A stretch of DNA of 64,000 nt, taken from contig CM030337.1 of the NCBI GenBank assembly GCA_017654855.1, positions 2,728,001 through 2,792,000 on the forward strand. The letters are read 5' to 3'. This document shows positions 614 through 18,815 of the stretch, piece by piece (the stretch's first letter is position 1; each line of letters starts with the position of its first letter). Position numbers and translations under genes: made by a program. The notes beneath the pieces are model-generated. The model searched no databases and was not told the origin of the DNA. It saw only the letters and a program-made list of their open reading frames with translations. The DNA is from Podospora anserina. Lineage: Eukaryota.

Positions 614-3600
614 ATGCAGAATTTCATGACAGACCCGGAACAGTCATTTGTTGGATCCGAGTCTGTCATCCCATCCTCCAGAGTTTTCGATCCCAGTTTT
701 GGCAACTTTCTGTCTGAGCTCGAGACGAAATTTACCCCAGCAGTGGCCTTTCTGCCTCCAGCTTTGATAGTTTGATCTGAGCATCGGCACACATTGTTTC
801 TCCAAGACCACCAACCAACCATTAGAGGAGATGGATGCTTTTTGGGAAAATCTCTCAAATTCCATGACCCTGCAAGACATAGAGTATGTTCTTGAACGTT
901 TTCAAGAGCTCTTCTCTACGAGGCAGCCACACGACTCTCCTAGCATGGCTTATCTCCTGAGCCAGGAGAGTCTCACATGGCAGTTGCACTTTGCCAAAAC
1001 TATGGACAGTGCTTCTCTCCAAAAAGCGCTCGAAACAAGCGACGCTGCTCTCTGCCATTTGCAACTTGATGGGCCCAATGGCCCTGATTCTGACAAGAGC
1101 GCGGTCTATGAGAGTGTCGCCAACAGTCGCTACACTCACTTTCAAGCAACTGGAAGTTTTGACAGCATCAAAGCTGCCATAGACCACTGCATTGTGGCAC
1201 TCAACTTTGAGGAGGCCGGAACTGCACGGTGGAGTGCTCTAGCCGTTGCAAAATTGAGCATTTACCTGATGGATCGGGTTGTGATGCTCCCTACACAGGA
1301 GCACGTTTCCGAAGCCGTGGAATTCTTTCGAAAACACTCTTCTACAGCAAACAAGCTCAGTCCAACCTACCACGCGCAGTTCCTATCTAGATTCAGCGTG
1401 GCTCTGTTTCACAAGTGCATGTTCGCTTCTGACGAGCCTGCCATCATGGAGGAAGCTCTGAAGCTTGGTTATCGGTCCATCGACATCATTCCGCCTGAAG
1501 CTGCAACCATGGAATACACAAATTGTGCCGGGATTCTTCAGCAACGCTTCCAACAAACCCTTCAGTTCAGTGTACTTGAGCACGCTCTTCAGATCTCCCG
1601 GTTGGCTGTGAAACATGAAGCGTCGAAGGACGTTGCGGAGAAGGCTGGGAAGCTGACGGCTCTCGGCAACATGCTGGTAACCAAATGTCAAAGATACATT
1701 GAAACCAAATCTCGGGAAGCGTTGCAAGCCTTAGAGGAGGCAATCCAGCTGGGTCGAGAGGCCGTCCGCACTCTGCAGCCAATAGACCCAAGTTCCAATG
1801 CACTTCTCAGACACGAAAAGTCCCATACGCTCACTTTGATTGCGCCATGGTTCGCCCTCAAATCGAGTGTAACCGGAGATCTTCGGTGTGGCGAGGAAGG
1901 TGTTCGGCTTCTTCAACAGGCCCTGACACTGACCTCGGATGGGCATCCAGCACGTCACCGAATTCTTACCTACTTGGCTCACATCCTCGAAACTCAACAC
2001 CAGATCTTGAAAGGCTGTAAGAATAAACGGCAGGCAATGGAAAAGCTGGACGAAGCCTTGAGATACGGCCGAGAGGCCGCTGAAGCAACACCGGAACTGG
2101 ACCCAGCCCGAGGCGAGCGTTATATGAATGTTGGCAAGATGCTTCTGAGCAAATGGCTCTTGAATGGAGACGACCAACCCGAAGAAGATGAAATGCTCGT
2201 ACTGGAGGCAAGGAAGCACTTTCGCTATGTGGCCAACCTAGCCTCGGCGCCACTTCTGTTGCGTTTGCCTGCGACAATTCAAGGGGCTCGACTACATCTG
2301 GAGAAGGGTGAAGTAACCGAAGCACACCAGCTCTTGCAGACCGGAATCTCCCTCTTGCCGACCCTTCACCCGCAAATTCTCTCTGCCGAAGACCTCAGGG
2401 CTACGTTGTCTCAAGTATCCGGCCTCTCTACATTGGCCGCCTCAGTCACCCTAGAAGCCGACAAAAGCCCCTTCGACGCCTTGATGTTTTTGGAGGCCGG
2501 CCGTTGCATCATTTCCGGGCTCTCCATGAGTCTCAAGACAGACATGATTCAGCTTCAGCAGAGAGACAAGGGGCTTGCTGATAGCTACGAGAATCTGAGA
2601 AAGAGGCTGGCTGCAGTTAGTCGACCTTCCCCCAGCGCATTGACCAGACCGCGACCTGTCGAAACGCAGCAGGAAGAGCTGCTTCAACAACTTTCACAAA
2701 TGGAGGGAGAGATACGAAAGTTGAAGGGGTTTGAAACCTTCCAGTTGCCCCTATCTGAAGAGATGGTCAGAGAGCTGGCTCAAGAGGGGCCTATTGTGGT
2801 TATCAATGTCACATACCGACGAAGCGACGCCATCATCATCACTCCTGATGAGATCAAGTCTGTGCAACTCCAACATCTCAAATATGAAGAACTGGACAAG
2901 AAGGTTGTTGTCTTTGAGAAGCTTGGAAACGGATCAAGACGCAACGTCGTAGTTGCAGATGAGTGCGAAGATGAGCCAGGAGACGAGGGTAGTGAAGCAC
3001 TGTATTGGCTTTGGAATGTCGCAGCACGTCCAATTCTGGATGAGCTGAGGGCTCATCTGGGGGATTCGAAGCGAGTTTGGTGGATTACAAGCGGACTGGC
3101 TGGGAGAGCGCCTCTCCACGCAGCCGGAAGCCATGGCTTCAACTCCACTGAAAACACACTTAGCCATGTCATCTCATCCTACATCTCATCACTCAAAGCT
3201 CTCCGATACGCGAGGCAGGCTGCCACATCTGTCAACGCACAGCCTAAGAGGAGCATGCTTCTGGTGACAATGCAAAAGAACCCTCCGCCGCATTGCAAAC
3301 TGGATACGAGACACGAAGAGAATGTGATTCGAAGCGTTTTTGGACAGGACATGCTACATCTCGAGCATCCAGATCCCGAGCTCGTCCTCAGGGAGATTCC
3401 CACCTGCTCTTTTGTCCACTTTGCCTGTCATGGGGCCTCCTTTAGTTCCGACCCGTCGAGAAGCGGACTTCTTCTGATCAAAGACGGGAAGGCCGCGATG
3501 CTCACCGTGGCTCAACTTGAAGAGGTTGATACAGAGCAGGCGGCGGTAGCCTATCTGTCTGCATGCTCGACAGCGCAGCAAACAGAAGGCAAGCTGGCCG

Positions 3601-3848
3601 ATGAGGCGATCCACCTCGGAAACACATTCCAAGCTTTGGGCTTTCAGCATGTAATTGGGACAATGTGGGGTGCTAATGACAAGGCGGCTGGGGATGTGGC
3701 AAAGAGATTTTATGCCAAACTAACCTCGGCGGGTGATATTGGTGTGGCACGGGCGTTGCATCAGAGCATGTTGGAGTATCGCAGCGCCACCACGGGCGAT
3801 GAGAGACATTTGTTGGCTTGGTGTCCATTCATTCATATCGGGGCCTAG
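614..3848 (+). CDS. Helical-repeat (TPR-like) + CHAT (caspase HetF-associated) protease
   Basis: ORF 831-3848 (1005 aa). CHAT motifs VHFACHG (His codon 3429-3431), YLSACSTA (Cys codon 3564-3566), LADEAIHLG, GFQHVIGTMW and terminal WCPFIHIGA; N-terminal TPR-like repeats (LEEAIQLGREAV, LDEALRYGREAA). Probable extra exon 614-742 joined in frame through intron 743-806 (less certain). Confidence 0.92.
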
Positions 3849-3974: not shown

Positions 3975-4859
3975 TCAAGAATCACTATCATCCTCATCCG
4001 ACGACACATCAGACTCACAAGCCCACCCAAAAACAACTCTCTCCCCATCCACACTCTTCGCCTCAAAAAGCGCCTCAGCCCCCTGCCCCGTACCCTCCGC
4101 CAGCCCAGCCCCAAGGTACACCTCCCTCTCTCCCTCCTCCTCCTCACCCACCCTCCCACCAACCCCCTCAACAACCGCCTTCCACCGATTACTAACCCCC
4201 AACTCCGGCCTCGCACTCCCCCCCCAAAACTCCCTAATCTTCACCTTCCGATAAGCAATAGCATATATCCTCTCCCCCTCATTCATCACCCTAGTCCTCA
4301 CCCCTTTCTTCACTTCCCTCCCCCCCTTGACCTCAACATCCGTCAACCCAAGCAAATCTCCCCCAACAGCCCCAACCGGCATCGCAACCCCCCCCTGAAC
4401 CCCAACCCCCGACCCCCCCTCCTCCCTCTCAACAGTAGCATTCTCAAACGTCCTAAAACCAGTTATGAACTGCGGCGACAACCGCCTCACCCGGCAGTTC
4501 TCCAACCACCGCTGCATCTCCCCCCCGGTCTCGGGACCAAAAACGATGGACTGGAAGAGCTCGTCCGGGTTGTTGAGGGAGTAGATCTTGCCCGTGTCGG
4601 CCAGGATGCGGAGAACGGTCGACTTGCTGTACGACACAGAAAAGGACGCGAACTTGGTGGCGAGGACGTCGAGGAAGGTTTTGGAGCTGGCGTCGAGCTC
4701 GGCGGAGAAGAGCGCGTCGGGTTGGGTCGTGAAGGCGGATTCGGGGACGGGGTGGTAGGGTCGCTTGGCGTCTTGGTGGGGTTGGGTGAGGTGGGGGACG
4801 AAGCTGGCGAGGGAGATTTGGGAGAGGAGGTAGGGGGAGTTTGTGAGCATGAAGGCCAT
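3975..4859 (-). CDS. Fungal gasdermin-like pore-forming protein (RCD-1/HET-Q1 superfamily)
   Basis: Intronless 294 aa. Motif order matches fungal gasdermins: ISLASFVP, YSLNNPDELF, FITGFRTFENA, Gly/Val beta-hairpin region (GVGVQGGVAMPV...VEVKGGREVK), GERIYAIAYRKV, then an acidic tail. Adjacent to a CHAT protease. Confidence 0.8.
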   Translation of the reverse strand: MAFMLTNSPYLLSQISLASFVPHLTQPHQDAKRPYHPVPESAFTTQPDALFSAELDASSKTFLDVLATKFASFSVSYSKSTVLRILADTGKIYSLNNPDELFQSIVFGPETGGEMQRWLENCRVRRLSPQFITGFRTFENATVEREEGGSGVGVQGGVAMPVGAVGGDLLGLTDVEVKGGREVKKGVRTRVMNEGERIYAIAYRKVKIREFWGGSARPELGVSNRWKAVVEGVGGRVGEEEEGEREVYLGAGLAEGTGQGAEALFEAKSVDGERVVFGWACESDVSSDEDDSDS

Positions 4860-5637
4860 GGTGGTTGAACTTGTTGGGGGTTGCGGGGGTGTGTGGGCCG
4901 GCGTGGGCTCTTTGCGCTGATGAAGAAATATCTATGTTTGAATGATGTGAGTAGTGAATGATACTTCTGTTGGGGGACTTTATGGTTTACCAGATTGGTA
5001 ACAATCACAGATCTCCCTTGACAGAGTTCGGGTCTATTGCCAAAAGTCTAGATATCTTGAGACGCTGGAAATAAGCAAGACGGTCGACATGGCTTTAGGC
5101 TTGAATTGAGAGACTTGGGTGGAGTAGTTGGGTTGCATTCAGGCATGAGAAGACCAGTTACACGAGGGCGAGTATTGCTTTGTCCAATTACACAATCAAT
5201 TCAAGATGCTTATTCAATTCTCTCTGCCCAATTCGGGTCGAATGTGGTGCCATACGAGGAGTCCTTAGGCTTACGCGGTCATGACATTGAGAAGCACCGG
5301 AGTCATTAAATTGGGATGCCATTCCCGCTGTCAAAACTTAAATTCTGTCCTCGAAATGAGACAGTGGTATTAGCTTGTCTTGATCCTCGGCTCACAATTC
5401 GTACAGGTAGTCTTGATACAACGCTTCAAGCATCATGCTTTGATCAAGGAGTCGATGTGATGGTTCATACCGTTTCAATACCTTTTCTAAGGTATATTCT
5501 GGAAACAAACCTTCCCCCAATCTATGATACATATTACAGACATATACCACCAAGTCCCATTGTAGTCATGTACTCTATACCCCCTATATACCCACCCATT
5601 TAAACCCTCACATCTATCATCATACAAATGACCCCCT

Positions 5638-7599
5638 TTACCTCCTCTGCTTCAGCAAACAATGCCTCCCCCACTTCCTCCTAAACCCCTCAGGAATAAT
5701 CTCCCAATCAGGCATCCAAACCGCCCTCGCCAAAAACGGTGTGCTCTCCGCATCCAAGAAAGGAAGACACTTGACCTCCTCCCACCGATCCACATTCTTC
5801 GCATAGTCCGGCTCATTCGGCGGAAGCTCCACATCCCCCCTCTCCGGGAACTGCGTGTCCACCATGAAAACACACATCCTCAAGTCGACATACTTGCCCA
5901 TGTCCTCCTCGTTCTTGTTGTTCAACCCGATGGTAGGCAGCCAAGTCCCGCCAAAGAAGCCAAACCCAGTCGTGGCCTCGCTAAACTCTCCAGGAAGCAA
6001 GCCACGGAACTCGGAACGGACAAATTTGGCGTGCATATCCTTGGGGAGGAAGTACGAAGTAGGGAAGCGGTACCAATCCTTGCCAAAGCAGACTGTGTCG
6101 CCCCGTCCGCCGACCTCAAAGAGCGGATCGTAGAGGGACAATGGGGCGTGGTAGGCAGTGTACATGCCACCAATGCGGGCAAGACCGACAATAGCTGACG
6201 CCACGAGCCCAAGGCTGACCACAGCCAGCTTGAGCTTGGCAGGGATCTTTCCCACGAGCGTCCTGGGGCTTGCGTTACCAAAGAAGGTGAGGAAACTGTG
6301 GAAGGCCAGGGCAGCGTTGAGAGCCAGGAAAGGGTATACAGGGTACATGAAGCGCTCTTCCTTATGGGGCTGAAGGGTAAAGATGCCCAGCCACATGTAA
6401 AAGGGCGTCAAAAAGACAAAGGTACGAAGCCCAGACTGGAAAGTCTCTCCTGTTGAGCGCATGAAGAGCTTCTGCAAGAGGAACAGCGGTAGAGAAACCA
6501 GCGCAAGGATGAACCAGATGTTGAAGTTGAGCAGCAGGTTCTTGAAGTAAAAGGTCCAGGGCTCGGTGCCGTAGAGGTCGGGGCCGCCGGTCTCGGAGAA
6601 GATGTTGTACTTGATGATGTTCCAAGAGACAAGTTCAAACCTTCTGTAGAAAAAGGTGTTGATAGAAGCGTCAAGGCCCTATTGGCTAGTTAGCGTTGGC
6701 GTTTGACCCAGGCGGGTCATGAAAACTTACAACTAGAAGAACTCCGGCCATAACACCACGAAAAACGCGAAGCGCAGACTCAAACATACGATCCTGGTCA
6801 CTGACAGCAGCAAAGAAGATCTCCTCCGCAACGAATGGCGCGCAAAGAGCCGCGGCAAACGGCCAGCCAAGAACGCCTCCTACGGCGAACCAGAACATGC
6901 CCATCGCTGTCTTGATCCCACCGCGCCAGTTCATGAAGGCGGCCGCGCCAAGACAGGACATGTACATGGCAAAGCTCGAGGGAAGATAGGCCGTGCTCGC
7001 GTGGAAATTTCCGGGGCTGAAGATGGTGGCTATTATGAAGAAGATTCCAACACGGGGGCTCAGGGCCAGGCAGATGGAGCGCCACATCAAGGTCTGGCAG
7101 AATGCGCACCCCACGGCGAATGCATAGCGGAGGAAGTAGAACTCGGCCACCTTGTTAGAGTGAGGCAATAGGCGGCGAATATTGGCAACAATGGCGTGGA
7201 TAGCAATGTAGAACCAGCTCCTGATGCTGAACTCGGGGGAGTATTCCCAGGTCTGAAGACCGTAGCCATGGCTGAGGTAGTGGGTAGGTTCCCAGTAGTT
7301 GAACGTCTCGTCGCAATCTTGGATCGGGGAGAAGAGAGCTGCTACGGCATTGGCGGCTAGGAAGAAGTAGAAGGCAGAGATGGGTTGGATCGCGAAAGCA
7401 TCTTTGATAGCCCTGGCCGAGAAGCGCATGTCAGCTCAACATTCCCAAGTATGTATTCGCGGGACACCCGGTTGGGATATGACGTGGGTAGCAGAGAAAC
7501 TCACTGTTTCCTGGCGTGTTTTGCTGATGGATGTACGAATTCTCTCTTCTCCTGGCTGGGGGCAGGCTTGGGAGCTGCTGGTTTGGCTTTGGGAGCCAT
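5638..7599 (-). CDS. ALG9: Alpha-1,2-mannosyltransferase Alg9 (GT22)
   Basis: Exons about 7599-7505, 7412-6731, 6678-5638. Motifs IQDCDETFNYWEPTHY, QTWEYSP, QPHKEERFMYP, GKDWYRFPTSYFLP; multiple TM segments. Confidence 0.95.
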
Positions 7600-8168
7600 C
7601 GTGTTGTTTTGGACCCTATTCCGGGGCTGCAGGAGGAAAGTGATTACATTTAGCTGCCACTTTTTGCTGGAGCTGAAGAACACACACAGACGTCAGCTCT
7701 CCAGCGGCTTCGATGTCCCCAAGCCAAGACGTGCTGGCAGTCAATGCCGCTAACCGCCTCAGGTAAGGCGCCATTAAGCGAGCGATCCACTTCCCGAAGA
7801 GAGTCCGTGCGCGTTACTTGCCGGCGTTCTCTGAACTTTTTTGGATCCAGACTTTTTTTGCGTGGCCATCAGAGAACCTTTGCGACTTCATCAAAGGTTT
7901 TGAACAGTCTTTTCTCTGGTCGGAATAGGATATTTGGTTCATCTCTTCTTTTTTTTCTATCTTATCAGATCAGACTCTTTTCACGTCGAAATATCTCCTC
8001 TCTCTGCCATCTCGATATCATCGCCCTCACGACTTTCTTATCGCACCTGAGTCGCCTTATCGAGTATTGATCGATCGGAAAGCCTGTGAAGCTACTTCAC
8101 CAGAACTACAGCACCCTACATACTTCCCACCTCTTTTCACCACATTTTCCATTCAGGGAGTACAAAGC

Positions 8169-10427
8169 ATGGAAGCGTCCTCTATGCAGATCCCCGGCCT
8201 CAATCTTGGCCAGGGGCAAGCTGAGGAGAAGCCAGCCAGTGAGGTGACGCAAAACACTCCTGTCGTTGTAAGTTTTGCTCTTCAGGATTTCACAGTACAA
8301 TTGGCTAATGTTGCTCCGCAGTCGGAAAAGCAGCAGGAGAATCTATCTCCAGTGGTTGAGGCCTCTGCTCGCCCGGATGAGGGCATGGATCTCGATGTCC
8401 AAGAACCGGTCATCACCAACCAAACAGAAACCAGCACAAAAGAGGTGGTGTCTGTTGATGTTCAAATGAAGGCCACAGATCTTGATGTCCCAGGCAGCCC
8501 AGACGTTACTGACGCGCTTGAGGCTGCTCTTGCCGCCGAGAATGATGTCAAAGACATGGTGGCTAAAGCCCAGGAGTCTGTTACTGCTCCAGCGACTGTC
8601 ACTACAACGGAGAGCAATGTCAATGTCAAGGACACAGTCATGGCTACAACACAGGAGACTGATATTACAGAGACCATCAGAAATACGACAAACGAGACTC
8701 CCGTCCAAGATGGAGAGCAAGAGGAGGGCGAGCACCCAGAGTGGGAGATTGACTCTTCACCCTATGAGTCCTCAAGCTCCGATTCTTCAGATGATGACTC
8801 AGATGATGAAGACTATCCAATTCTCGGCGTCGAGGAAACCGCCCGGATGTTGATGGCTCTCGAGCATGATGGTGATGTGAACGGGTCTCGAGGCGTTAGA
8901 GAGCCAATCCGATCCAAAAACGAGAAGCCTGAAGAGGTGATCCCCAAGCCTGATGTTCAAATTCTCCCCGAGGATAAGATTGAGCTTTTGGGTCAGATTC
9001 AGTTCATTGTTGAGACCAATCTTGTCATCCAATCCTGCAAGTCCGCTGCAGAGCAGGTTCTAGACACCGGCACTGTACTGTGCAAGGAAGACCGCACCGT
9101 CATTGGTGCCCTGGCTGATGTGTTAGGCAACGTCAGAGATCCCAAGTATACGGTGGGCTTCGCCAACGAAGAGGAGATCAAAGAGCTTGGGCTGGAAGTT
9201 GGAATGCCCATCTTCTTCTCAACGAGGCATGCCAACTCTGTTTTCACCAAGCCGCTTATGCAAGCGAAGTACACGGATGCGAGCAACGTGCACGATGAAG
9301 AGCTTGCTCCCGAAGAGATGGAGTTCTCCGACGATGAGAAGGAACAAGAGTACAAGCGGAATAATAAGCTGCAGAAGCGAACGAACCGCGAGAAAAAGCT
9401 CGGGATTGAACCAGGAACTGGTCGCGGTGGCGGTCGCGGCGGAAAGTGTGGTGGTCGAGGCGGAGGTTCAGGCTGGGGCGCCCAACATGCTCCTAGCTCC
9501 TCCGTTGCGACAACAGCTACGCTCGATTATGATGACGACGATGGGCCTTACCGTCCATTGGCCAGACCCCCCGGATTTGGTTTACCTCCCAGGCCCCCGA
9601 GTCCGGCTCGCGACCAGCTGAACTTCGATCAGCATGGTGGTTTCGACAATCGAGGCCGTGACGATAACCGTAGTCATGATGGCTTCCGTGATCGAGGAAA
9701 CAGCCGTGGCAGGGGCGGCTTCAGAGGCAATTTCCGCGGTCGCGACAACGAAGGGGGTCCTCGCGGCTTTGGTCATGGGAGACATTCGTCTGTCTCGACT
9801 GATGTCTCCACCGCAACATCCGCAACTCTGCCAGCTTTCTCCGCCAGCGGCAGCCCTTCTCCCTACAGCTTACATGTCCGCCCTCCATTCCCACCCGTTC
9901 CAGCTCCTACCCAAGGCGCCTGGCCCGGCATGCCAGCTATTCCTTTCCCCCCTCCGCCGCACGGCTATTCAGCTGCTCAGCAGGCACCGCGTCCACCCAT
10001 TCCCGGACAGCCGCAGCCTCCTACGGGTGGGTTCACGTTTAACTATCCCGCCTGGCCGCAGGCTCAAACCCAGGCCCAGGGGCAGGGGTACGGTTATGCT
10101 CCAGTGGCTCCATCCCCAACCCCTCCCCAACAGCAGGCTGCGTACACTCAGCCGCCGAACTGGGCCGGCGCAGCCGCGATTCTCCATAATTTGGCGCAGG
10201 GTGCCTACGGGCAGCAGGCTCAGCAACAGGCTCAGCAACAGACTCCGCAGCAGGCTCAACAGCAGGCTCAACAGAGCTATCAAGGTCAGTCTGCTTATCA
10301 TCCCCAGCAGGGCTACCAAGGTCAAGCTGGTCACCAGACCCAGCAGAATGGAGGTCAGCAACAGGCTCAGACGCAAGCTCAGCAGCAAGCTCCGCAACAG
10401 CAACAGAATCAGTACTGGCAGCATTAG
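8169..10427 (+). CDS. NAF1: H/ACA snoRNP assembly factor Naf1
   Basis: Gar1/Naf1 domain (VLDTGTVLCKEDRTVIG...DVLGNVRDPKYTV), TDASNVHDEE..EEMEFSDDEKE motif, RGG boxes, Pro/Gln-rich tail. First ATG at 8169. Confidence 0.9.
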   Translation: MEASSMQIPGLNLGQGQAEEKPASEVTQNTPVVVSFALQDFTVQLANVAPQSEKQQENLSPVVEASARPDEGMDLDVQEPVITNQTETSTKEVVSVDVQMKATDLDVPGSPDVTDALEAALAAENDVKDMVAKAQESVTAPATVTTTESNVNVKDTVMATTQETDITETIRNTTNETPVQDGEQEEGEHPEWEIDSSPYESSSSDSSDDDSDDEDYPILGVEETARMLMALEHDGDVNGSRGVREPIRSKNEKPEEVIPKPDVQILPEDKIELLGQIQFIVETNLVIQSCKSAAEQVLDTGTVLCKEDRTVIGALADVLGNVRDPKYTVGFANEEEIKELGLEVGMPIFFSTRHANSVFTKPLMQAKYTDASNVHDEELAPEEMEFSDDEKEQEYKRNNKLQKRTNREKKLGIEPGTGRGGGRGGKCGGRGGGSGWGAQHAPSSSVATTATLDYDDDDGPYRPLARPPGFGLPPRPPSPARDQLNFDQHGGFDNRGRDDNRSHDGFRDRGNSRGRGGFRGNFRGRDNEGGPRGFGHGRHSSVSTDVSTATSATLPAFSASGSPSPYSLHVRPPFPPVPAPTQGAWPGMPAIPFPPPPHGYSAAQQAPRPPIPGQPQPPTGGFTFNYPAWPQAQTQAQGQGYGYAPVAPSPTPPQQQAAYTQPPNWAGAAAILHNLAQGAYGQQAQQQAQQQTPQQAQQQAQQSYQGQSAYHPQQGYQGQAGHQTQQNGGQQQAQTQAQQQAPQQQQNQYWQH

Positions 10428-13400
10428 GTACGTGCCATTCACTATGCTAGGCTTCTGAGCGAGCAAAACGCGGCCAACGGCCAGCAAGGCTCGACTGACA
10501 GTCAGGAAAGATCGGCGAACGACCGATCCGAGTCTCGACGTGACGCCTAACTGATCGAACGACCGCCTCCTTTGTTGGTTGTCGAGGGGTAGGACGTGGT
10601 ATGGAGGTTGGCTCATCGTCTTTGAGCAAGTGCTCCACGACAAAATATGGGTTTCTCCTTGGAACTCGGCGGAGCGATTGCCGACTTACACCAATAGTCG
10701 ATTTTGCTCAAGTTATGAGCGCGTGTGGAACGCACAAGATGGACCTGGCGGATGAGTCGTCTACCATGGGGTTTTTATTTTTATTTTCCCCAGCATTTTT
10801 TAATTGCTAGACTCGGGAATTTCGAGCCATAGGGATACCACCCGTCGAGTGGTTAGTGTGTACAGCAGAGGAGGAGGGGGTGGATTTCTTGTTTGCATAG
10901 TGTAGCAAGGATGGATGGGCGGATGAGCCGGGTGCATCATGGTGTTTCGGTTCAGCAAGAAGGCACTGTCTATGGGATGTAGGACTACTTGTTATAATGA
11001 TACCAGCACAGAGGTAGACAAAATGAAGAGTACTGTAAAACAAACCAGACCGTCTCGTAAAGGTTGATGGATTAGTGGATTGGAGATCAGGTCGCGAGCA
11101 GGTTCGGGACGGTAGCGTATTGCTTCGCCGCTGAGGGTGGCAAGCTGGAGGTGAAATACACCGAGCTTGATGCTCCCGTGACAGTTGCATTTTGTTTTAC
11201 GCCGTGATGGCTTTGCGGCGAGGCATAAGAGGCGTGGAAAGGAGCTGGGTTTGCCGTGATTCCCCGTTTCCGCGTCATGGATCACCTAGATACGGTCTAC
11301 AATTCGGATCAGATGTTGATCACTTGGCTTATTGGTGCATAATGTTGATGTGGGTAGTTGTTCAAAATTCCAGGTTTATGGCCCATCGTTGGCGATGCAT
11401 AATTCTCATGTGGGGAGTTCCAATATCTTGGACATTCAAGCATCGGAATAACCGTCAATGGAAGGAAGATCAACCATAGCAAACCTTGATGAACCATCGA
11501 AGCGTTGTGTTCTCATCGCGTTGATGCATTTTCTCAAGACAGATATCACCATTGATGGTCACAGCTTCAACACCAACACCCATGCTGTTCGGATCTCGGA
11601 ATGGCGTCACCTTTCAATCTTATCTCATCTTCCCCACGGCTTTACCGCCCTACAAATGGAGAAAGACAAGGCCCTCACGGTCGCAGGTCGCCGACCCGGC
11701 CGGTGCTCTCGGGCTCGGCGGCCGAGACAAAAGAAACGAGGGACCCTGAAAGTGCTCCGCTGATCGCGCGTGGAGAAAGAGGATTGAACGGCGCGGAAAA
11801 GGTGAAACGTTAGCGGCCGGCCCACACCAACAGTCCACTATCAACGACCACCACCCATCAAAAATTCCGAGATGGGAATTGAATTCCGATAAGACAACCA
11901 CAACAGGAGACAAGATCGCGGCGCAGTCTGGAGGGAAGCCAGTGCGGAAGAAAAAAAAAAAGGTCAAGTTCTTGTTGGCCTTAAGGATCAAAGTGATCGA
12001 CTTGCAGGTGGTTATGTAAAATCGTGCATATGAGGAGGGAAATGGTTGATCAATTGCCTAGAATGAGATGGTGCATGAGGCCCGTTGTTATGTAGTAATA
12101 TATTAGGGGTGTTGGTTAGCAGTGGTGGGTTGGTTTGCGGCGTAGAACGAAGTGAATAATTTCTTGGGTGTTTGGTGAGGCGTAAAAGGGTCAGCAGCAG
12201 GAAGAAAGCTGAGAATAGAAATTCCGATGGTGCTTGGGACCTGATGGACTGGAGAGGAAACTCAGCCACGGGGATTTGGTGAGAAGATGGACAGAGAGGG
12301 CGAGGAGAGAGAAAGGTCAAAAGTGGTGATCCAACAGCAGACAGGCGCTGCATTCTCACCTTCATCGTCTGCTTGGCCTGCGTGTGACGAGCGAGTCGCC
12401 TGTGTTGCCCTCACCCACCCAGTTGTGTGTTTGGAATGCAAACACCCATCGGGATCTCGCATGGGCGGCAGGATGGTGGCAGCAACAGCAGCAGTAGCAC
12501 AACACGTGGTGGGTAAAAACGAAACAACACACACACACACACACACACAGAAAAAGGAATTCTTGAAAGAAGAATGGAAGCCTTTTCCACGAGGCATCAA
12601 GAGACGGCGAACGACAGCGGCCAGTTGGCGGGGGGCGGCGTTTTTGGCTGATGCCAAAATAGTCCTAGCGGATCAAGGCGAGCAGTTGGCTCCACCTCGA
12701 AATACCCCGGCGGGCAGTTTTTACCAGCCAATGGCATCCCTGCCGACAATCTCGCTTCAGGGGTTGATCTGCGGCCCGCCAATCAGGAAAATGCGGTCCC
12801 TGAAAGGTTGGACGGGTCCATGCGTTGGGGTAGGGGAAGAAGAAACAAGCAACGAGAGCTCGTGGAGCTTGATGATCCAGAGGTGGTTTGGATGAAACGA
12901 AACATTATCGAATGGTTTTACCGTGATACGAGCAGATCGGAAGAGAATAGAGAGAAGGGATGGGAAAACAGGAAAACGGCGCAGTGTAGCGACGATCCCA
13001 AGAAGGGGGGACAAGGGGAGGCACAGCAAACCGCAACTCGTTAGACCCTTCCCTTTTGCATCGCTGTGACCCTGTAAGCTCACGGCTTGGCCTCACACAC
13101 AGCCTGCGTTCCTTTCGAGCATCTCGCTGATCCCGGCCACCCCTCCCCATTCCCAGCGACACCGTCAACAGCACCACCACCTTGCCGCTCTTGGGCTGGT
13201 CTTGGCTGCCATTCTGACTGCAGTTGCCTTCTCCTCTTTCCCTCTCGCCCTCCCTTCTCCTGCATCCCCCATTCCCGCTTTTCGTCCTACCACCTCACCG
13301 TCTCTGTCCACCAGACATCGCCGTCCTGTTGTCGCCGGGCATGCTGTCGTGGATGTTGTGAATCCTGACCATGATGCGCAGAGATTGACGCCAGCGAACG

Positions 13401-13639: not shown

Positions 13640-15295
13640 ATGACAGCACGAGAAAGGATGAGGAATGATGTGGTAGAGGTGGAGGCAGTCATTGCTGCGG
13701 CGCCGGCTACGAGGACAGCGGAGGAGAAGCCACTAAAGACACCACATATCGAGCTGCGAGGCCTGGAGGGGAGACAGGAAGCGATATTGCCTGACCAGAT
13801 CGACCCAGTGACCAACGCCCCCAACGACAGAATCATCATCGACAATTCGCTAGTGACCTCAACCCTCGTGGCACCTAGCGTCACCCCGGAGGTGTCAACC
13901 TCTCGAGGCACGCCATCATCCAGACCGACACAGGACACGAACACCAACACTGGCAACGCCGACGAAGGCGTAAGCGTCGCGGTCAAAGCTGGCATCGCAA
14001 TGGGTGTCCTCGCCGGCGTGCTAGTACTCTTCGTGGTGGTCTGGTTGATAATGAGCATGCGCAAGAAGAAGCAAGCCCGCAGACGCCAGCAGATCGAGGA
14101 CGATGAAAAGATCCACGGACCTTTCTCCGACAGCGCAGCCATATCGAGAAGCCCGCCCGCTGCTGCTGCCCCCAGCGCGGCTCCCAGACTGAGCCTCCGT
14201 CCGGTTTCTCAACTGTGGCAGAACTTGGCTCCTAGCGGGCACCCCGAGCGGAGGGCTTCTAGGGGTATCCAACTCACCGTCAACCCCGCCGGCCCGTCTC
14301 ATTCCCCGACAAACTCTCTGTCGCCGTTGAATCGTCCTAACCAAGGGGGTTCAGCTTGGGAGCGCCACAGGATGCAGTCTACCACCCCCACCGGGGACAA
14401 CCGCCCTGGCACCCGAGGGAGCGTTTACTCCCTCAATCCCTTCCACGACAGCCACTCCACCAGGAACTACAACAACGAGCCCGTCAGCCCGGTGTCTACC
14501 CTCGCGCCAGAGTTCCCTGCCGTCCCGAGCAAAAACCGCTCTCCAACACCAGAGCCAGTATCCCCAATAGATCAGGACACTGACCTCCCCGATTTTGGCG
14601 CCGGCTCCAAGCCTCTAACCCGCAAGACGTCCATCAACCACCACAATAAGGGGTTGCCCAAACCACTGGACCTGACGAAGCCACCATCCCCGTTATACGC
14701 CCCCGGCCCGGCATCCCCAGCAGGAACAGAATACAGCATGCACTCCATGTCCCCCTCAACTATGGTCCCCTCCTCCACATCAGCAGCCGAAATCGCCGCC
14801 GCCGGCGGGCCCCAAAACTCAACTGTGCATCGTGTCCAGCTCGATTTCAAGCCCACTCTCGAGGACGAATTAGGTCTCAAGGCGGGACAGCTGGTGCGGT
14901 TGTTGCACGAGTATGATGACGGCTGGGCGCTGTGTATTAGGCTTGATCGGTCGCAGCAGGGGGTTGTGCCGAGGACTTGCTTGTCTACACGGCCGGTGAA
15001 GCCCAGGCCGGCGCAGAACGGGCCGAGGGTTGTGCCCCAGGGGGGGTATAATAGGGGTGGGAATGGGAATAACACGGGGGGGTTTCCATCCCCGCCGGGG
15101 CAGCAACAAAATGGGGGTTGGCAGAGCGCGGAGAGGTCCGAGAGCCCGGGGAGTTTTTACTCGACGAACCAGGGGGTCAGTCCCAGTCCGGGGGGTGGTG
15201 GGAGTGGTGGGATTGGAACGATGAGGGGGCAAGGGGGGGGCGAGTATGAGATGCAGATGGGGGGGTTGAGCCCGGCGCCTGGGCAGGCTTATTAG
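13640..15295 (+). CDS. Single-pass membrane protein with C-terminal SH3 domain (Fus1-like)
   Basis: Ser/Thr-rich N region, TM (AGIAMGVLAGVLVLFVVVWLI) followed by RKKK, and SH3 (VQLDFKPTLEDELGLKAGQLVRLLHEYDDGWALC..GVVPRTCL). Start uncertain. Confidence 0.85.
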   Translation: MTARERMRNDVVEVEAVIAAAPATRTAEEKPLKTPHIELRGLEGRQEAILPDQIDPVTNAPNDRIIIDNSLVTSTLVAPSVTPEVSTSRGTPSSRPTQDTNTNTGNADEGVSVAVKAGIAMGVLAGVLVLFVVVWLIMSMRKKKQARRRQQIEDDEKIHGPFSDSAAISRSPPAAAAPSAAPRLSLRPVSQLWQNLAPSGHPERRASRGIQLTVNPAGPSHSPTNSLSPLNRPNQGGSAWERHRMQSTTPTGDNRPGTRGSVYSLNPFHDSHSTRNYNNEPVSPVSTLAPEFPAVPSKNRSPTPEPVSPIDQDTDLPDFGAGSKPLTRKTSINHHNKGLPKPLDLTKPPSPLYAPGPASPAGTEYSMHSMSPSTMVPSSTSAAEIAAAGGPQNSTVHRVQLDFKPTLEDELGLKAGQLVRLLHEYDDGWALCIRLDRSQQGVVPRTCLSTRPVKPRPAQNGPRVVPQGGYNRGGNGNNTGGFPSPPGQQQNGGWQSAERSESPGSFYSTNQGVSPSPGGGGSGGIGTMRGQGGGEYEMQMGGLSPAPGQAY

Positions 15296-16431
15296 GGGGG
15301 CTTTGTCTGCGGGGATGGGAGGATGGTGAAGTATGTACCTGGTTGGCATGGCCCGAGGGGTTGGGGTTTGAGTTTGAGGTGCCGGGTGGGAGGAGGGTGA
15401 GGGGAGGGTATAGGAGGTTTCCGGCGAGGCCTAGGGAGAGGCATTGTTGGGGAGATGGTGGAGAGGAGGAGGGGGTCGAGGTTGCCACCACGGCCGTGAA
15501 TGGAGGTGCTTTGCGATGGGTGCAGTGCTGTCGTTGGCAACAGGACCGCATCATGTGAGAAACACAAATGACGATGGGGAAAGGAACGACAGGAGGAGAG
15601 GGGGACTGGCTGTATCTTGATCCACGCAACGGTGTAAATGCCTTGCTCAAGTTATGGGTTTTCGGAGGGTGGGGTGTTTTATGTATCTGGTTCTGGGAAG
15701 GGAGTTGATGGCGTTAAGGGGACCTTGGTGTGGCATTTTTTCTTCATTTTTTTGGGTGGGGATGAATTTTTTTCATTTTATTTTTTAAAAAAAAACCGGG
15801 GATCTTCAAGTCACTCATTTGCGACCTTTTCTTCTCTATTGGAGAAAGGTATTTTTTGGAAGCTTTTTTTGGACCTTGTTTTGGAACTATGCTATGGACC
15901 TTTTCTCTTTTGGACCTTTTCTCTGTTGGTGGATACCTAACTACGACCTGCCCTTTGTGCGGGAAACGTACAAGCTTAAAGATATTCTTTTCCTTACTTT
16001 TGTGTGGCCTGTTAATGGCTTTCTTGTTTTGTTGAACTCTGGTTGGGAGTGTTCTTTGATGATCCAAGGGGGTGGGGGGGCGATCAGAGTTGTACATTGG
16101 CGTGTTGTTACAGTAGTACACGATGGGAGTTGTAGAATACAAGAGTTGTACCAAGACTTGACTGGATTTGAGGTTTTTCTTCCCGCCAAAAAATGATGGG
16201 ATGTCTAATCATGCTTCATGTCAACAGTACCTAGCACACGACTCCAGCTAGACGCTTGAGCTTGATCCGCCGAGCCCCCACATTCTGGCAATTTCAAGGA
16301 AAATACGCCCTCCTGCTTCTGGGCCAAGAGAGGACCAGCTGTTTATACGAGTCCGGAATATAGCTTCTTCCAGTAACCTAGATAGAAAATGCCCATGGTT
16401 AGTTTTCCTCAAAACGCTTTTCGCTGAAACA

Positions 16432-17525
16432 TCATGGGCCCCTCAACCCCGAAGCCATCAGATGCACTCGCCAATTATTCGGTCTCGGTCCCCTCTCAAC
16501 CACAAACGGTGCCCCCTCCAGGGTCTCGTTCTCAAAAAAGTGGTGGCTGGGCAGTCCACGCTTTGGCTTGAGGGGCAGGTCCGGGAGGGCCAAGACAAAC
16601 TGGTTCCTGTCCTTGACCTTGACGTTGAAGAGCTTGGCAAAGAAGCGGGTTTCGCTCATGCGCTTGTGCCAGTCCCGGAGGTCCCTCGTGTGAAACCAGA
16701 TGTGGAGGCTGTGCAGGTTGGGCAAGAGGGCGAGCTGGTCGCAGACGCGCTGCCAGGGGTTGGAGTGCATCGTGATGCCGGGGTGGGAGTCCTCGCTGCG
16801 ACCGTTGCTGCTGTTGCCGTGGCCAAAGGCAGGGTTGGGGCCTTCGTTTTCTTCCGAGGTTGGGAAGTAGAGCTCGGTCATGAGCTGGGTGGTGAGGATG
16901 CAGATTTCAAGGGAGCGGATGGGGAGCTTTTCGGGGTTGCCGCCGTAGAGGGAGAGCCATCCGTGTGCTTCGAGGAGGTCGGTGAAGACGAAGGTGGTGT
17001 TGGCGACGAGGGAGGGGAGGGCTTCGCGGTACCTGGTGGCGTGGACTGTTAGTTTAGGGGACTGCGGGGATCAGTGGTGAGGGTCACATACATCCTCTTA
17101 CACACCAGCATGGGGTTCATGAAGCCACTGGGCCCGGCATGTCCGACATTCTCCTCCCTCCACGAGTCGTTGGGGTTTTGGGCCCTGTGCCATTTGGCTG
17201 TCGACTGCTCGCAGCACCAGTGATAACACCATTCCGACTTCAACCGCTTCACCCAGTAGTACTCCTCCTGCGATCCTCTGGCGCTCTGGGTGAACTTCTC
17301 AAAACGAGTATCTCCAGTGGAGTAGTCTGCCACGCAGGGAACATGAGACCACTTGTCGTTGTCCTTGTATATGTGTTGCCTTGAACCACTCTCGCTCCAG
17401 ATGTCCTGGTAGATCAACTCCCGAATCTCCGGTGGCAGGAGGGAAAAGAACGGGGAGTCGTCCTGGGCTAAGGTGGTGGCCACCATGGTGTCCTGTGTCT
17501 GTTCTGGTGTCTCTTGTCGTCTCAT
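16432..17525 (-). CDS. Conserved fungal hypothetical protein with F-box-like N-terminal motif
   Basis: Exons 17525-17092 and 17032-16432 (GTATGT...CAG intron). SPFFSLLPPEIRELIY and LVCKRMYREA-type motifs. Confidence 0.8.
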
Positions 17526-18815
17526 GATGGGCCTTCAATTACAGGATATCTGCGAGCACAAGAACAACAAAAAGGAAAGAAACATGGGAGTAAGGTTACG
17601 TTGCGTTTTAAGTTCCGGGCCATGCCTGCCTTCACCGACCGCAGCTTTTCCCCCGCCTGCCACTCCTGCCTAACATCCGACTTACCTGGTAGCCTATCGA
17701 CCGGTGCAGACGGAGGCAACCCAATTGGATGGCCAGATGTCACATCGGTACTCAGACGCAGCTCAGACGCATGGACTGGTGCATTCATGCGAGCTGTCAA
17801 TCTTGACTGGCGCGGTTAAGCATGTGCTCTGTCAACTTCAACGTGGAGGACACGTGAACACGCGAAAACCTCCGTGGGAAGTGTGGTAGGTAGGGTAGCA
17901 CTGGACACAGTTTTTGCCATCTTGCCATGTGAAACGGAATCTGGTTTTCCGGGAAGGTCAGACAGCGGGAGGGAGACCATAGGGAGGCCATCGTGATAAG
18001 CCTTATCGTGGTGGAATGCGGGGAAGGCTGGAGCTGAGCCGGCGTGCGTGCGGAGTGGGCAGGTGGGGTAAGCCCCGGGCCCGGACCTTGGCCCCCGCGT
18101 TGGGAGGGGGTGGTTGATAACCTCTGGTCCTTCGGATCATGCCGGTCTTTCTGCGGAAGTCGAAACAAAATGTTTCGGAAGAAGTGATCAGGTTCACCGG
18201 ACACCGCGGAAGAATGGCCAACTCCCACGCTCCAGACTCGGAGACGGCCCCGAGCTGGGCCTCCTGTGGAGAGCTCGGCTTCCAGAAGATTCCCATTTGA
18301 CAAATCGACAGATCGGGGGGTCTTCAGCCAATGCCCCGCTTTCACCCGATCCCGCTGGTCCTCATCAGGCAGGACCTCCCCGCCGTGGGGTGTGTCCGCT
18401 GCTTGCTTGCTCCGGAGCCGCGATATCATTCACCGTCGAGCTGGCCTTGTTAACTGTCTGCTTCTTGCTCGTGTTACATCCTGTGGGCAGGTGACCAAAA
18501 CTGCAAAAGTAAGTCAACACATATCGTATTTCAAACCACGCCTCAACACCTAGTTAACAGGCCTCTTAACTTTCAGAAGGATGTAACTTGACAATAACTA
18601 CACGATTTACTGACTTGCAATACCAGTTATTTTCCCCAGAACCTGTGTTACCACCAGCCTGACACCACCCTCAACTTTTGGCAACAACGCCCCAAACCTT
18701 TCGAGCTTGATCAGCCCTACAACAGCGCCCACAAGCACTTACAGAGCTACCTACCTATCCCCTTCCAGACCTTCCATTCGATCCCCAGCGACAACCGCAA
18801 AAGCCCAAACCCACC

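Follow-up and report, generated by a model that had tools for sequence, protein, structure and literature searches.

The control over gasdermins in fungi is illustrated by HET-Q1 (278 aa), from which a partner protease, the S8 subtilisin HET-Q2, removes a short C-terminal inhibitory tail by cutting at F238↓A239 (the arrow marks the cut bond), about 40 residues from the C-terminus; the loss of a C-terminal fragment of about 5 kDa, which the initial annotation of the locus described here had cited, agrees with this site. Both L237 and F238 are required for the cut, and the truncation 1-238 is toxic, whereas 1-237, 1-247 and 1-261 are not. Moreover, HET-Q1-N binds acidic lipids only after the tail has been removed.

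Separase, a clan-CD protease whose fold is said to resemble that of CHAT domains, cuts after Arg; its substrates and domain context are unrelated to those of Q2L-6, the CHAT protein considered below. In Runella zeae, according to the available text of Johnson et al. (bioRxiv 2021.06.07.447441), a Roc-COR-CHAT protease encoded beside a bacterial gasdermin (bGSDM) cuts it at L247↓G248, in a loop immediately ahead of a short C-terminal peptide that is inhibitory. The Craspases, in which the TPR-CHAT protein Csx29 acts on Csx30, cut at L↓D, M↓K and A↓S, sites that the accessible part of the report (PMC11106740) describes as non-conserved. The statement in the initial annotation that CHAT relatives cut after Arg does not hold for the proteases mapped in these two sources, which cut after Leu, Met or Ala.

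The pair of genes on chromosome 6 of P. anserina was described by Clave et al. 2022 (PMC8851545), whose main text presents Q1-6 (Pa_6_6615) as a distant homolog of het-Q1 and Q2L-6 (Pa_6_6610) as a TPR-CHAT protein, of which residues 701-1005 formed the protease construct. According to this text, N-terminally V5-tagged Q1-6 (~35 kDa) is progressively processed in mixed lysates, but only if the CHAT domain of Q2L-6 is among their components, processing by HET-Q2 is absent, some Q1-6/Q2L-6 transformant pairs gave a barrage, and the CHAT domain triggers cell death. The main text, its preprint version and the PNAS commentary give neither a mapped cut site for Q1-6 nor the size of its processed form; a search of the literature found no later mapping of the site, and Clave et al. 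2022 was the sole relevant paper. Since exactly this locus has already been described as a gene pair with a proteolytic switch, the analysis presented here reveals no new system; what it contributes is a sharper, testable hypothesis on a known pair, together with a motif analysis and a fold test.

Q1-6 resembles HET-Q1 in being a fungal gasdermin with a short C-terminal tail that would be inhibitory and removed by a partner protease. The two systems differ in that HET-Q2 is a subtilisin and het-Q1 is an idiomorph of het-Q2, whereas Q2L-6 is a CHAT protease and its gene is a neighbour of Q1-6. The Runella system shares with the present one a CHAT protease gene beside that of the gasdermin, but it is bacterial, with a 21-residue tail, Leu at P1 and Gly at P1', and, as far as the available text goes, with neither an acidic tail nor a conserved Arg. 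The Craspases share the TPR-CHAT architecture of Q2L-6 and provide its nearest solved relative, 7zoq, but they are RNA-guided, and their substrate, according to the part of the report consulted, is Csx30 and not a gasdermin.

The locus and its protease

In the window (the whole stretch of 64,000 nucleotides that was analysed), the two genes are convergent, and 126 nt separate their stop codons, that of Q1-6 lying at 3977-3975 on the reverse strand (Table 1). This is the published Q1-6/Q2L-6 pair of Clave et al. 2022 (PMC8851545), as follows from the exact primer matches, the spacing of these primers, the locus tags of the orthologs and the identity of the CHAT region. The promoter primers published for Q1-6 match exactly at 4864-4884 and 5713-5733, which reproduces the published 870 bp, and the reverse primer for the Q2L-6 promoter matches exactly at 809-830, where it abuts the ATG. 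The fourth deletion-cassette primer has no match within the window, as expected if its 836-bp amplicon begins a few bases upstream of the window. The cluster of Q1-6 at 90% identity includes orthologs in P. comata, P. pseudopauciseta (QC763_606615) and P. pseudoanserina (QC764_606615); orthologs of Q1-6 have locus tags ending in 606615 and those of Q2L-6 tags ending in 606610, and residues 701-1005 of Q2L-6 are 99% identical to P. pseudopauciseta QC763_606610.

Table 1. Features of the Q1-6/Q2L-6 locus, in window coordinates
Feature	Position	Strand	Basis or remark
Q2L-6 (Pa_6_6610-type) CHAT protease gene	831..3848	+	1005 aa; ORF, primer, ortholog identity
CHAT domain, residues 723-1005	2997..3845	+	Pfam PF12770, E = 1e-30; 107.6 bits (cutoff 24)
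Catalytic His867	3429-3431	+	invariant in 63/63 homologs
Catalytic Cys912	3564-3566	+	invariant in 63/63 homologs
Q1-6 (Pa_6_6615-type) gasdermin-like gene	3975..4859	-	294 aa + stop; ORF, fold, primers, locus tags
Pore-forming core, residues 1-227	4179..4859	-	pLDDT mostly 72-97; ends at the conserved L220/N224/W226 element
Gly/Glu-rich linker, residues 228-246	4122..4178	-	predicted coil; no secondary structure in 228-246
Arg236 codon AGG	4152..4154	-	candidate P1 for activation; Arg in 142/156 relatives and 7/7 Podospora-complex orthologs
Acidic tail, residues 237-294	3978..4151	-	58 residues; proposed inhibitory peptide
Tail strand T1, residues 247-253 (VYLGAGL)	4101..4121	-	modelled strand; holds the alternative candidate site L249↓G250
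Tail strand T2, residues 261-268	4056..4079	-	modelled strand, block 261-270 pLDDT ~74; weak conservation, with gaps, in the family
Tail strand T3, residues 274-280 (RVVFGWA)	4020..4040	-	modelled strand, block 271-280 pLDDT 80

The nearest solved sequence relative of the CHAT domain is the TPR-CHAT protein 7zoq (E = 0.0017), whose His-Gly and Ala-Cys motifs are matched in the alignment by the histidine and cysteine of the catalytic dyad of Q2L-6. Another residue, Asp950 (3678-3680), lies four residues past Trp946; 90% or more of the 63 homologs share it, and it is a possible S1-pocket acid; the aligned position in 7zoq is Pro.

The gasdermin-CHAT pairing recurs in relatives. At least five relatives that carry the Arg discussed below have a CHAT ortholog apparently on the same contig: the pairs P0002/P0204, P0003/P0203 and P0004/P0206 come from contigs of equal length, and P0010/P0224 and that of P. 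pseudopauciseta from locus tags together with the contig. A metagenome scan for relatives of Q1-6 yielded two loci, one of which ends before any neighbour; the other (contig L001) encodes a gasdermin relative with R-G at 10001-10858 and a CHAT homolog at 15168-17552, 4.3 kb downstream. The L001 genes lie on one strand with this distance between them, unlike the convergent, adjacent genes in the window. A prediction of the complex between residues 701-1005 of Q2L-6 and residues 221-294 of Q1-6, made without family alignments, scored 0.20 and 0.12 where the mark is 0.34, and it weighs neither for nor against such a complex.

The other neighbours are housekeeping genes. One, at 5638-7429 on the reverse strand, encodes an Alg9-like mannosyltransferase over two ORFs, and it is likely to be split by an intron since a single profile is divided between them (positions 2-221 in 6686-7429 and 292-414 in 5638-6477). 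The other, at 8067-10427 on the forward strand, encodes a protein that has a Gar1/Naf1 domain and whose long C-terminus is rich in Gln.

The fold of Q1-6

Curated sequence models did not place Q1-6 among the gasdermins: Pfam gave no family at E <= 0.1, PADLOC gave no model match for any of 19 clade members, and a sequence search of solved structures with Q1-6 alone and with two profiles found no gasdermin. The only match in this last search, a designer PPR repeat protein, was rejected because no single stretch passed. The place of Q1-6 among the gasdermins, which the initial annotation had proposed, rests on the fold of the predicted structure and on the published assignment. An AF2 model (macab36f1cd53) based on an alignment of 126 family members has a pLDDT of 80.1 and a pTM of 0.74, whereas with 19 sequences AF2 had given a poor model, of pLDDT 51. 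In the better model, Foldseek ranks 1-8 are all gasdermins (E from 2e-8 to 7e-5), with the RCD-1 pore at 2e-8 followed by bacterial, Trichoplax, GSDMD, GSDME and GSDMA3 gasdermins. VIA ranks 1-14 are likewise all gasdermins, with Z going from 12.1 down to 7.3; the RCD-1 pore (Z 12.1) aligns over 195 residues with an rmsd of 4.7, and a bacterial gasdermin follows at Z 10.8. As modelled, Q1-6 has a gasdermin fold.

The model contains two long extended hairpins, 43-95 and 142-192, and confidence within the core dips at the tips of two long hairpins and at 211-220. The motif YAIAYRKV, which had been taken for the last core strand, starts at residue 199 and does lie within the last long modelled strand (196-212), but the conserved core runs beyond it, to L220, N224 and W226. 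The model is closer to the pore forms of gasdermins than to the inactive monomers (the RCD-1 pore at Z 12.1 versus an inactive Bradyrhizobium gasdermin at Z 7.8), and the modelled placement of the tail is therefore not readable as the resting state. In the better model, VIA aligns gasdermin chains consisting of the pore domain only out to residues 258-263, whereas in the poorer model these alignments end at 223-227, both figures referring to first and last aligned residues only. Since these chains reach 258-263 in the better model, T1 may stand there in the place of the last core strand.

The arginine before the acidic tail

Translation of the ORF confirms that the linker motif VEGVGGR ends at Arg236 (codon 4154-4152) and that a 58-residue tail follows. 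The initial annotation had described these as 58 acidic residues; the tail does have this length and is acidic, but only 18 of its residues are (12 E and 6 D, with 3 basic ones), which gives a net charge of -15, a pI of 4.05 and a mass of 6.07 kDa. Residues 1-236 have a net charge of +3 and a pI of 8.99, and the difference in acidic residues between the two parts (18/58 versus 25/236) is significant (Fisher p = 2.7e-4). The block 231-240 around Arg236 is coil in the AF2 model, with a pLDDT of 56.

A profile search for the Q1-6 family returned 876 representatives at E <= 1e-3, and 156 full-length members (240-345 aa), chosen from the family hits, were aligned with MAFFT L-INS-i. HET-Q1 is not among 55 profile hits. 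Six of the family hits (P0036, P0106, P0110, P0126, P0096 and P0161; 446-604 aa) have an N-terminal PNP_UDP_1 phosphorylase-superfamily domain and match only the first half of the gasdermin profile (about positions 3-157), and another, P0051 (1047 aa), has the full gasdermin region followed by DUF7104 repeats.

An Arg ahead of the acidic run, which the initial annotation had proposed to look for in orthologs, is found both across the family and throughout the Podospora complex. W226 is present in 153/156 relatives, and seven residues past it lies a column with R in 142/156 (the rest being K in 5, M in 3, L in 2, and I, T, G and V in one each), which ranks as the 8th most conserved of 254 columns. 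The next column is occupied by G in 80, S in 31 and A in 18 of the 156, so that the family-wide motif reads W-x6-R-[G/S/A], and it includes Arg236 of Q1-6. As far as literature searches show, this motif is undescribed in print. A count made without the alignment gives R between W+4 and W+12 in 148 of the 153 sequences with the Trp, and at W+7 in 115 of them, against a chance expectation of about 26% for any five positions.

Q1-6 itself is one of the 14 exceptions in the Arg column. Its Arg lies off the column, at W+10, because of a three-residue Gly-rich insertion, and this spacing occurs in only 2/153 sequences. In the close clade of 19 sequences, R occupies one column in 18/18 relatives, with that of Q1-6 two columns further on; 16/19 have Gly after their own Arg, and the Arg is the only residue conserved at 90% or above between W226 and the C-terminus. 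Among seven near-identical sequences of the Podospora complex, R236 is invariant and is followed by Gly in four: residue 237 (4149-4151) is V in two (the window and one other), G in four and R in P. pseudoanserina, and it is the only three-state column among the 13 variable ones, in the printed alignment of these seven sequences as read by eye. Since residue 237 is G in 4/7 and the motif of the wider family is R-G, the ancestral local motif would be R-G as well. In one of the seven, Leu249 is replaced by Phe. Six of the 14 exceptions in the Arg column read M-G, L-G or I-G, and, because the Gly is kept, they look like a change at P1 rather than the loss of an Arg with a structural role.

The tail too has a common design. 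Past the Arg, family tails have a median of 46 aa (IQR 43-53), a median net charge of -14 and an acidic fraction of 0.34. Between the Arg and T1, the linker has 4-21 residues (median 8) and is acidic; T1 is amphipathic, with columns 248, 249 and 253 hydrophobic in 87%, 97% and 96% of relatives, and the T3 columns 276, 277 and 279 are hydrophobic in 84-87%. The order in the family is an acidic linker, T1, acidic loops and T3. An acidic tail with two conserved hydrophobic strands is thus, in the alignment, a family-wide feature. Because this order agrees with the modelled strands, which have pLDDT values of 74-80, and with the coil, the tail of Q1-6 is a typical member of a conserved design in which a cleavable linker is followed by docking strands. 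On the evidence of sequence, the Arg, the acidic run and the two hydrophobic tail motifs all exceed chance and recur across the family.

Where the tail may be cut

These observations are consistent with a mechanism in which Q1-6 would be held inactive by its own acidic tail, with the strands T1 (247-253) and T3 (274-280) docking back onto the basic core. Q2L-6, a clan-CD cysteine protease that has the dyad His867/Cys912 and, N-terminally, a long region that would act as a sensor, would on activation cut the exposed Gly/Glu-rich linker of Q1-6, most likely at Arg236↓Val237 within the W-x6-R-[G/S/A] motif. The freed fragment, of 25.8 kDa and net charge +3, would then oligomerise into membrane pores, and the cell would die. 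For Q1-6, what we infer is where the cut lies, that the tail inhibits and that the cleavage is direct. The proposal in the initial annotation that cleavage near Arg236 frees the pore domain agrees with the published CHAT-dependent processing and barrage at this locus; as to the bond itself, Arg236 is a plausible site, and a cut after it falls somewhat short of probable.

The bond Arg236↓Val237 is favoured because of the conservation of the Arg, its coil context, the small residue that follows it in the family, and the removal of all the acidic sequence that a cut here would bring about. In line with this last point, a fragment with the Arg as its last residue would be neutral or basic in 70% of 148 relatives, compared with 32% for one that ends in T1. 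Several points speak against it. By analogy, a cut after Arg would be without precedent among the CHAT proteases with mapped sites; Q1-6 is also an atypical member of the family, with its Arg at W+10 and Val instead of Gly after it in the window. Moreover, the pore-domain alignments reach to 258-263 in the better model, although they end at 223-227 in the poorer one, and the family probably includes S8-linked relatives, in which the conserved Arg would need another explanation. The published processing, finally, was seen in mixed lysates and could be indirect.

A cut at the start of T1, either Leu249↓Gly250 or the bond after it, would set free some 45 residues of tail with a mass of 4.5 kDa, close to the roughly 5 kDa lost by HET-Q1; the Arg would then serve otherwise, in lipid binding, in a salt bridge to the acidic tail or in an oligomer contact. 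The sole CHAT protease mapped on a gasdermin, that of Runella, cuts V-L↓G (V246-L247↓G248 in the available text), which resembles Y248-L249-G250 of Q1-6, and the HET-Q1 site, V236-L237-F238↓A239-G240, resembles the Y-L-G-A-G of Q1-6; L237 of HET-Q1 is also part of the protomer interface in the pore, and gasdermin pore-domain structures superpose on the better model as far as 258-263. Against this, the poorer model ends these alignments at 223-227, column 250 is unconserved in the close clade (G, E, Q and V in Q1-6 and its three closest relatives), the family consensus at this place is V-V-E-A, and the active fragment would keep a variable and strongly acidic appendage, with a median net charge of -2, such that only 32% would be neutral or basic. 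A cut in T1 is somewhat unlikely. Another possibility, suggested for Craspase too, is that the CHAT protease reads the docked tail by its shape and, paying little heed to sequence, cuts whichever loop is exposed: the bond could lie within the acidic stretch 238-246 or within the loops 254-260 or 269-273, and conservation would not predict it. The sites cut by Craspase orthologs are indeed not conserved, and for Jc-Craspase any single substitution from P4 to P4' is tolerated (PMC11106740, in the part available); several columns in the loops past T1 hold acidic residues in 58-75% of relatives, and D-G occurs at 271-272 in about half. Yet this D271-G272 pair is found in only about half of the relatives, Q1-6 and its closest relative have no Asp in 254-262, and the near-invariant R-G in a coil would be left unexplained; such a shape-directed cut is quite unlikely. 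Very unlikely is an indirect role for Q2L-6, which would activate or release another protease in the lysate, such as an Arg-specific metacaspase, that then cuts Q1-6. It would fit with the fact that the accessible accounts know Q1-6 processing only from mixed Podospora lysates and barrage and that metacaspases, in the sources at hand, cut after Arg or Lys, but the conserved pairing of the gasdermin and CHAT genes argues against it, as does the direct cleavage in both the HET-Q1/HET-Q2 and the Runella systems.

If Arg236↓Val237 is the true cut, this single conserved Arg-Gly bond would predict the active fragment for a whole clade of fungal gasdermins, and an Arg-specific member would be added to the CHAT proteases. 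A broader and more speculative idea, possible but tentative, is that W-x6-R-[G/S/A] would be the activation site common to hundreds of fungal gasdermins, that their TPR-CHAT partners would be Arg-specific, that the M-G, L-G and I-G variants would belong to partners with a switched specificity, and that residue 237 (V, G or R) would tune the firing of the death switch. The clade appears to include a CHAT-linked Coccidioides gene, and one member of the Q1-6 family, P0168, comes from Coccidioides immitis. According to a bioRxiv preprint, the maturation of spore chains in C. posadasii requires its het-q1 ortholog and the CHAT gene next to it, and P0168 is possibly, and only possibly, that ortholog.
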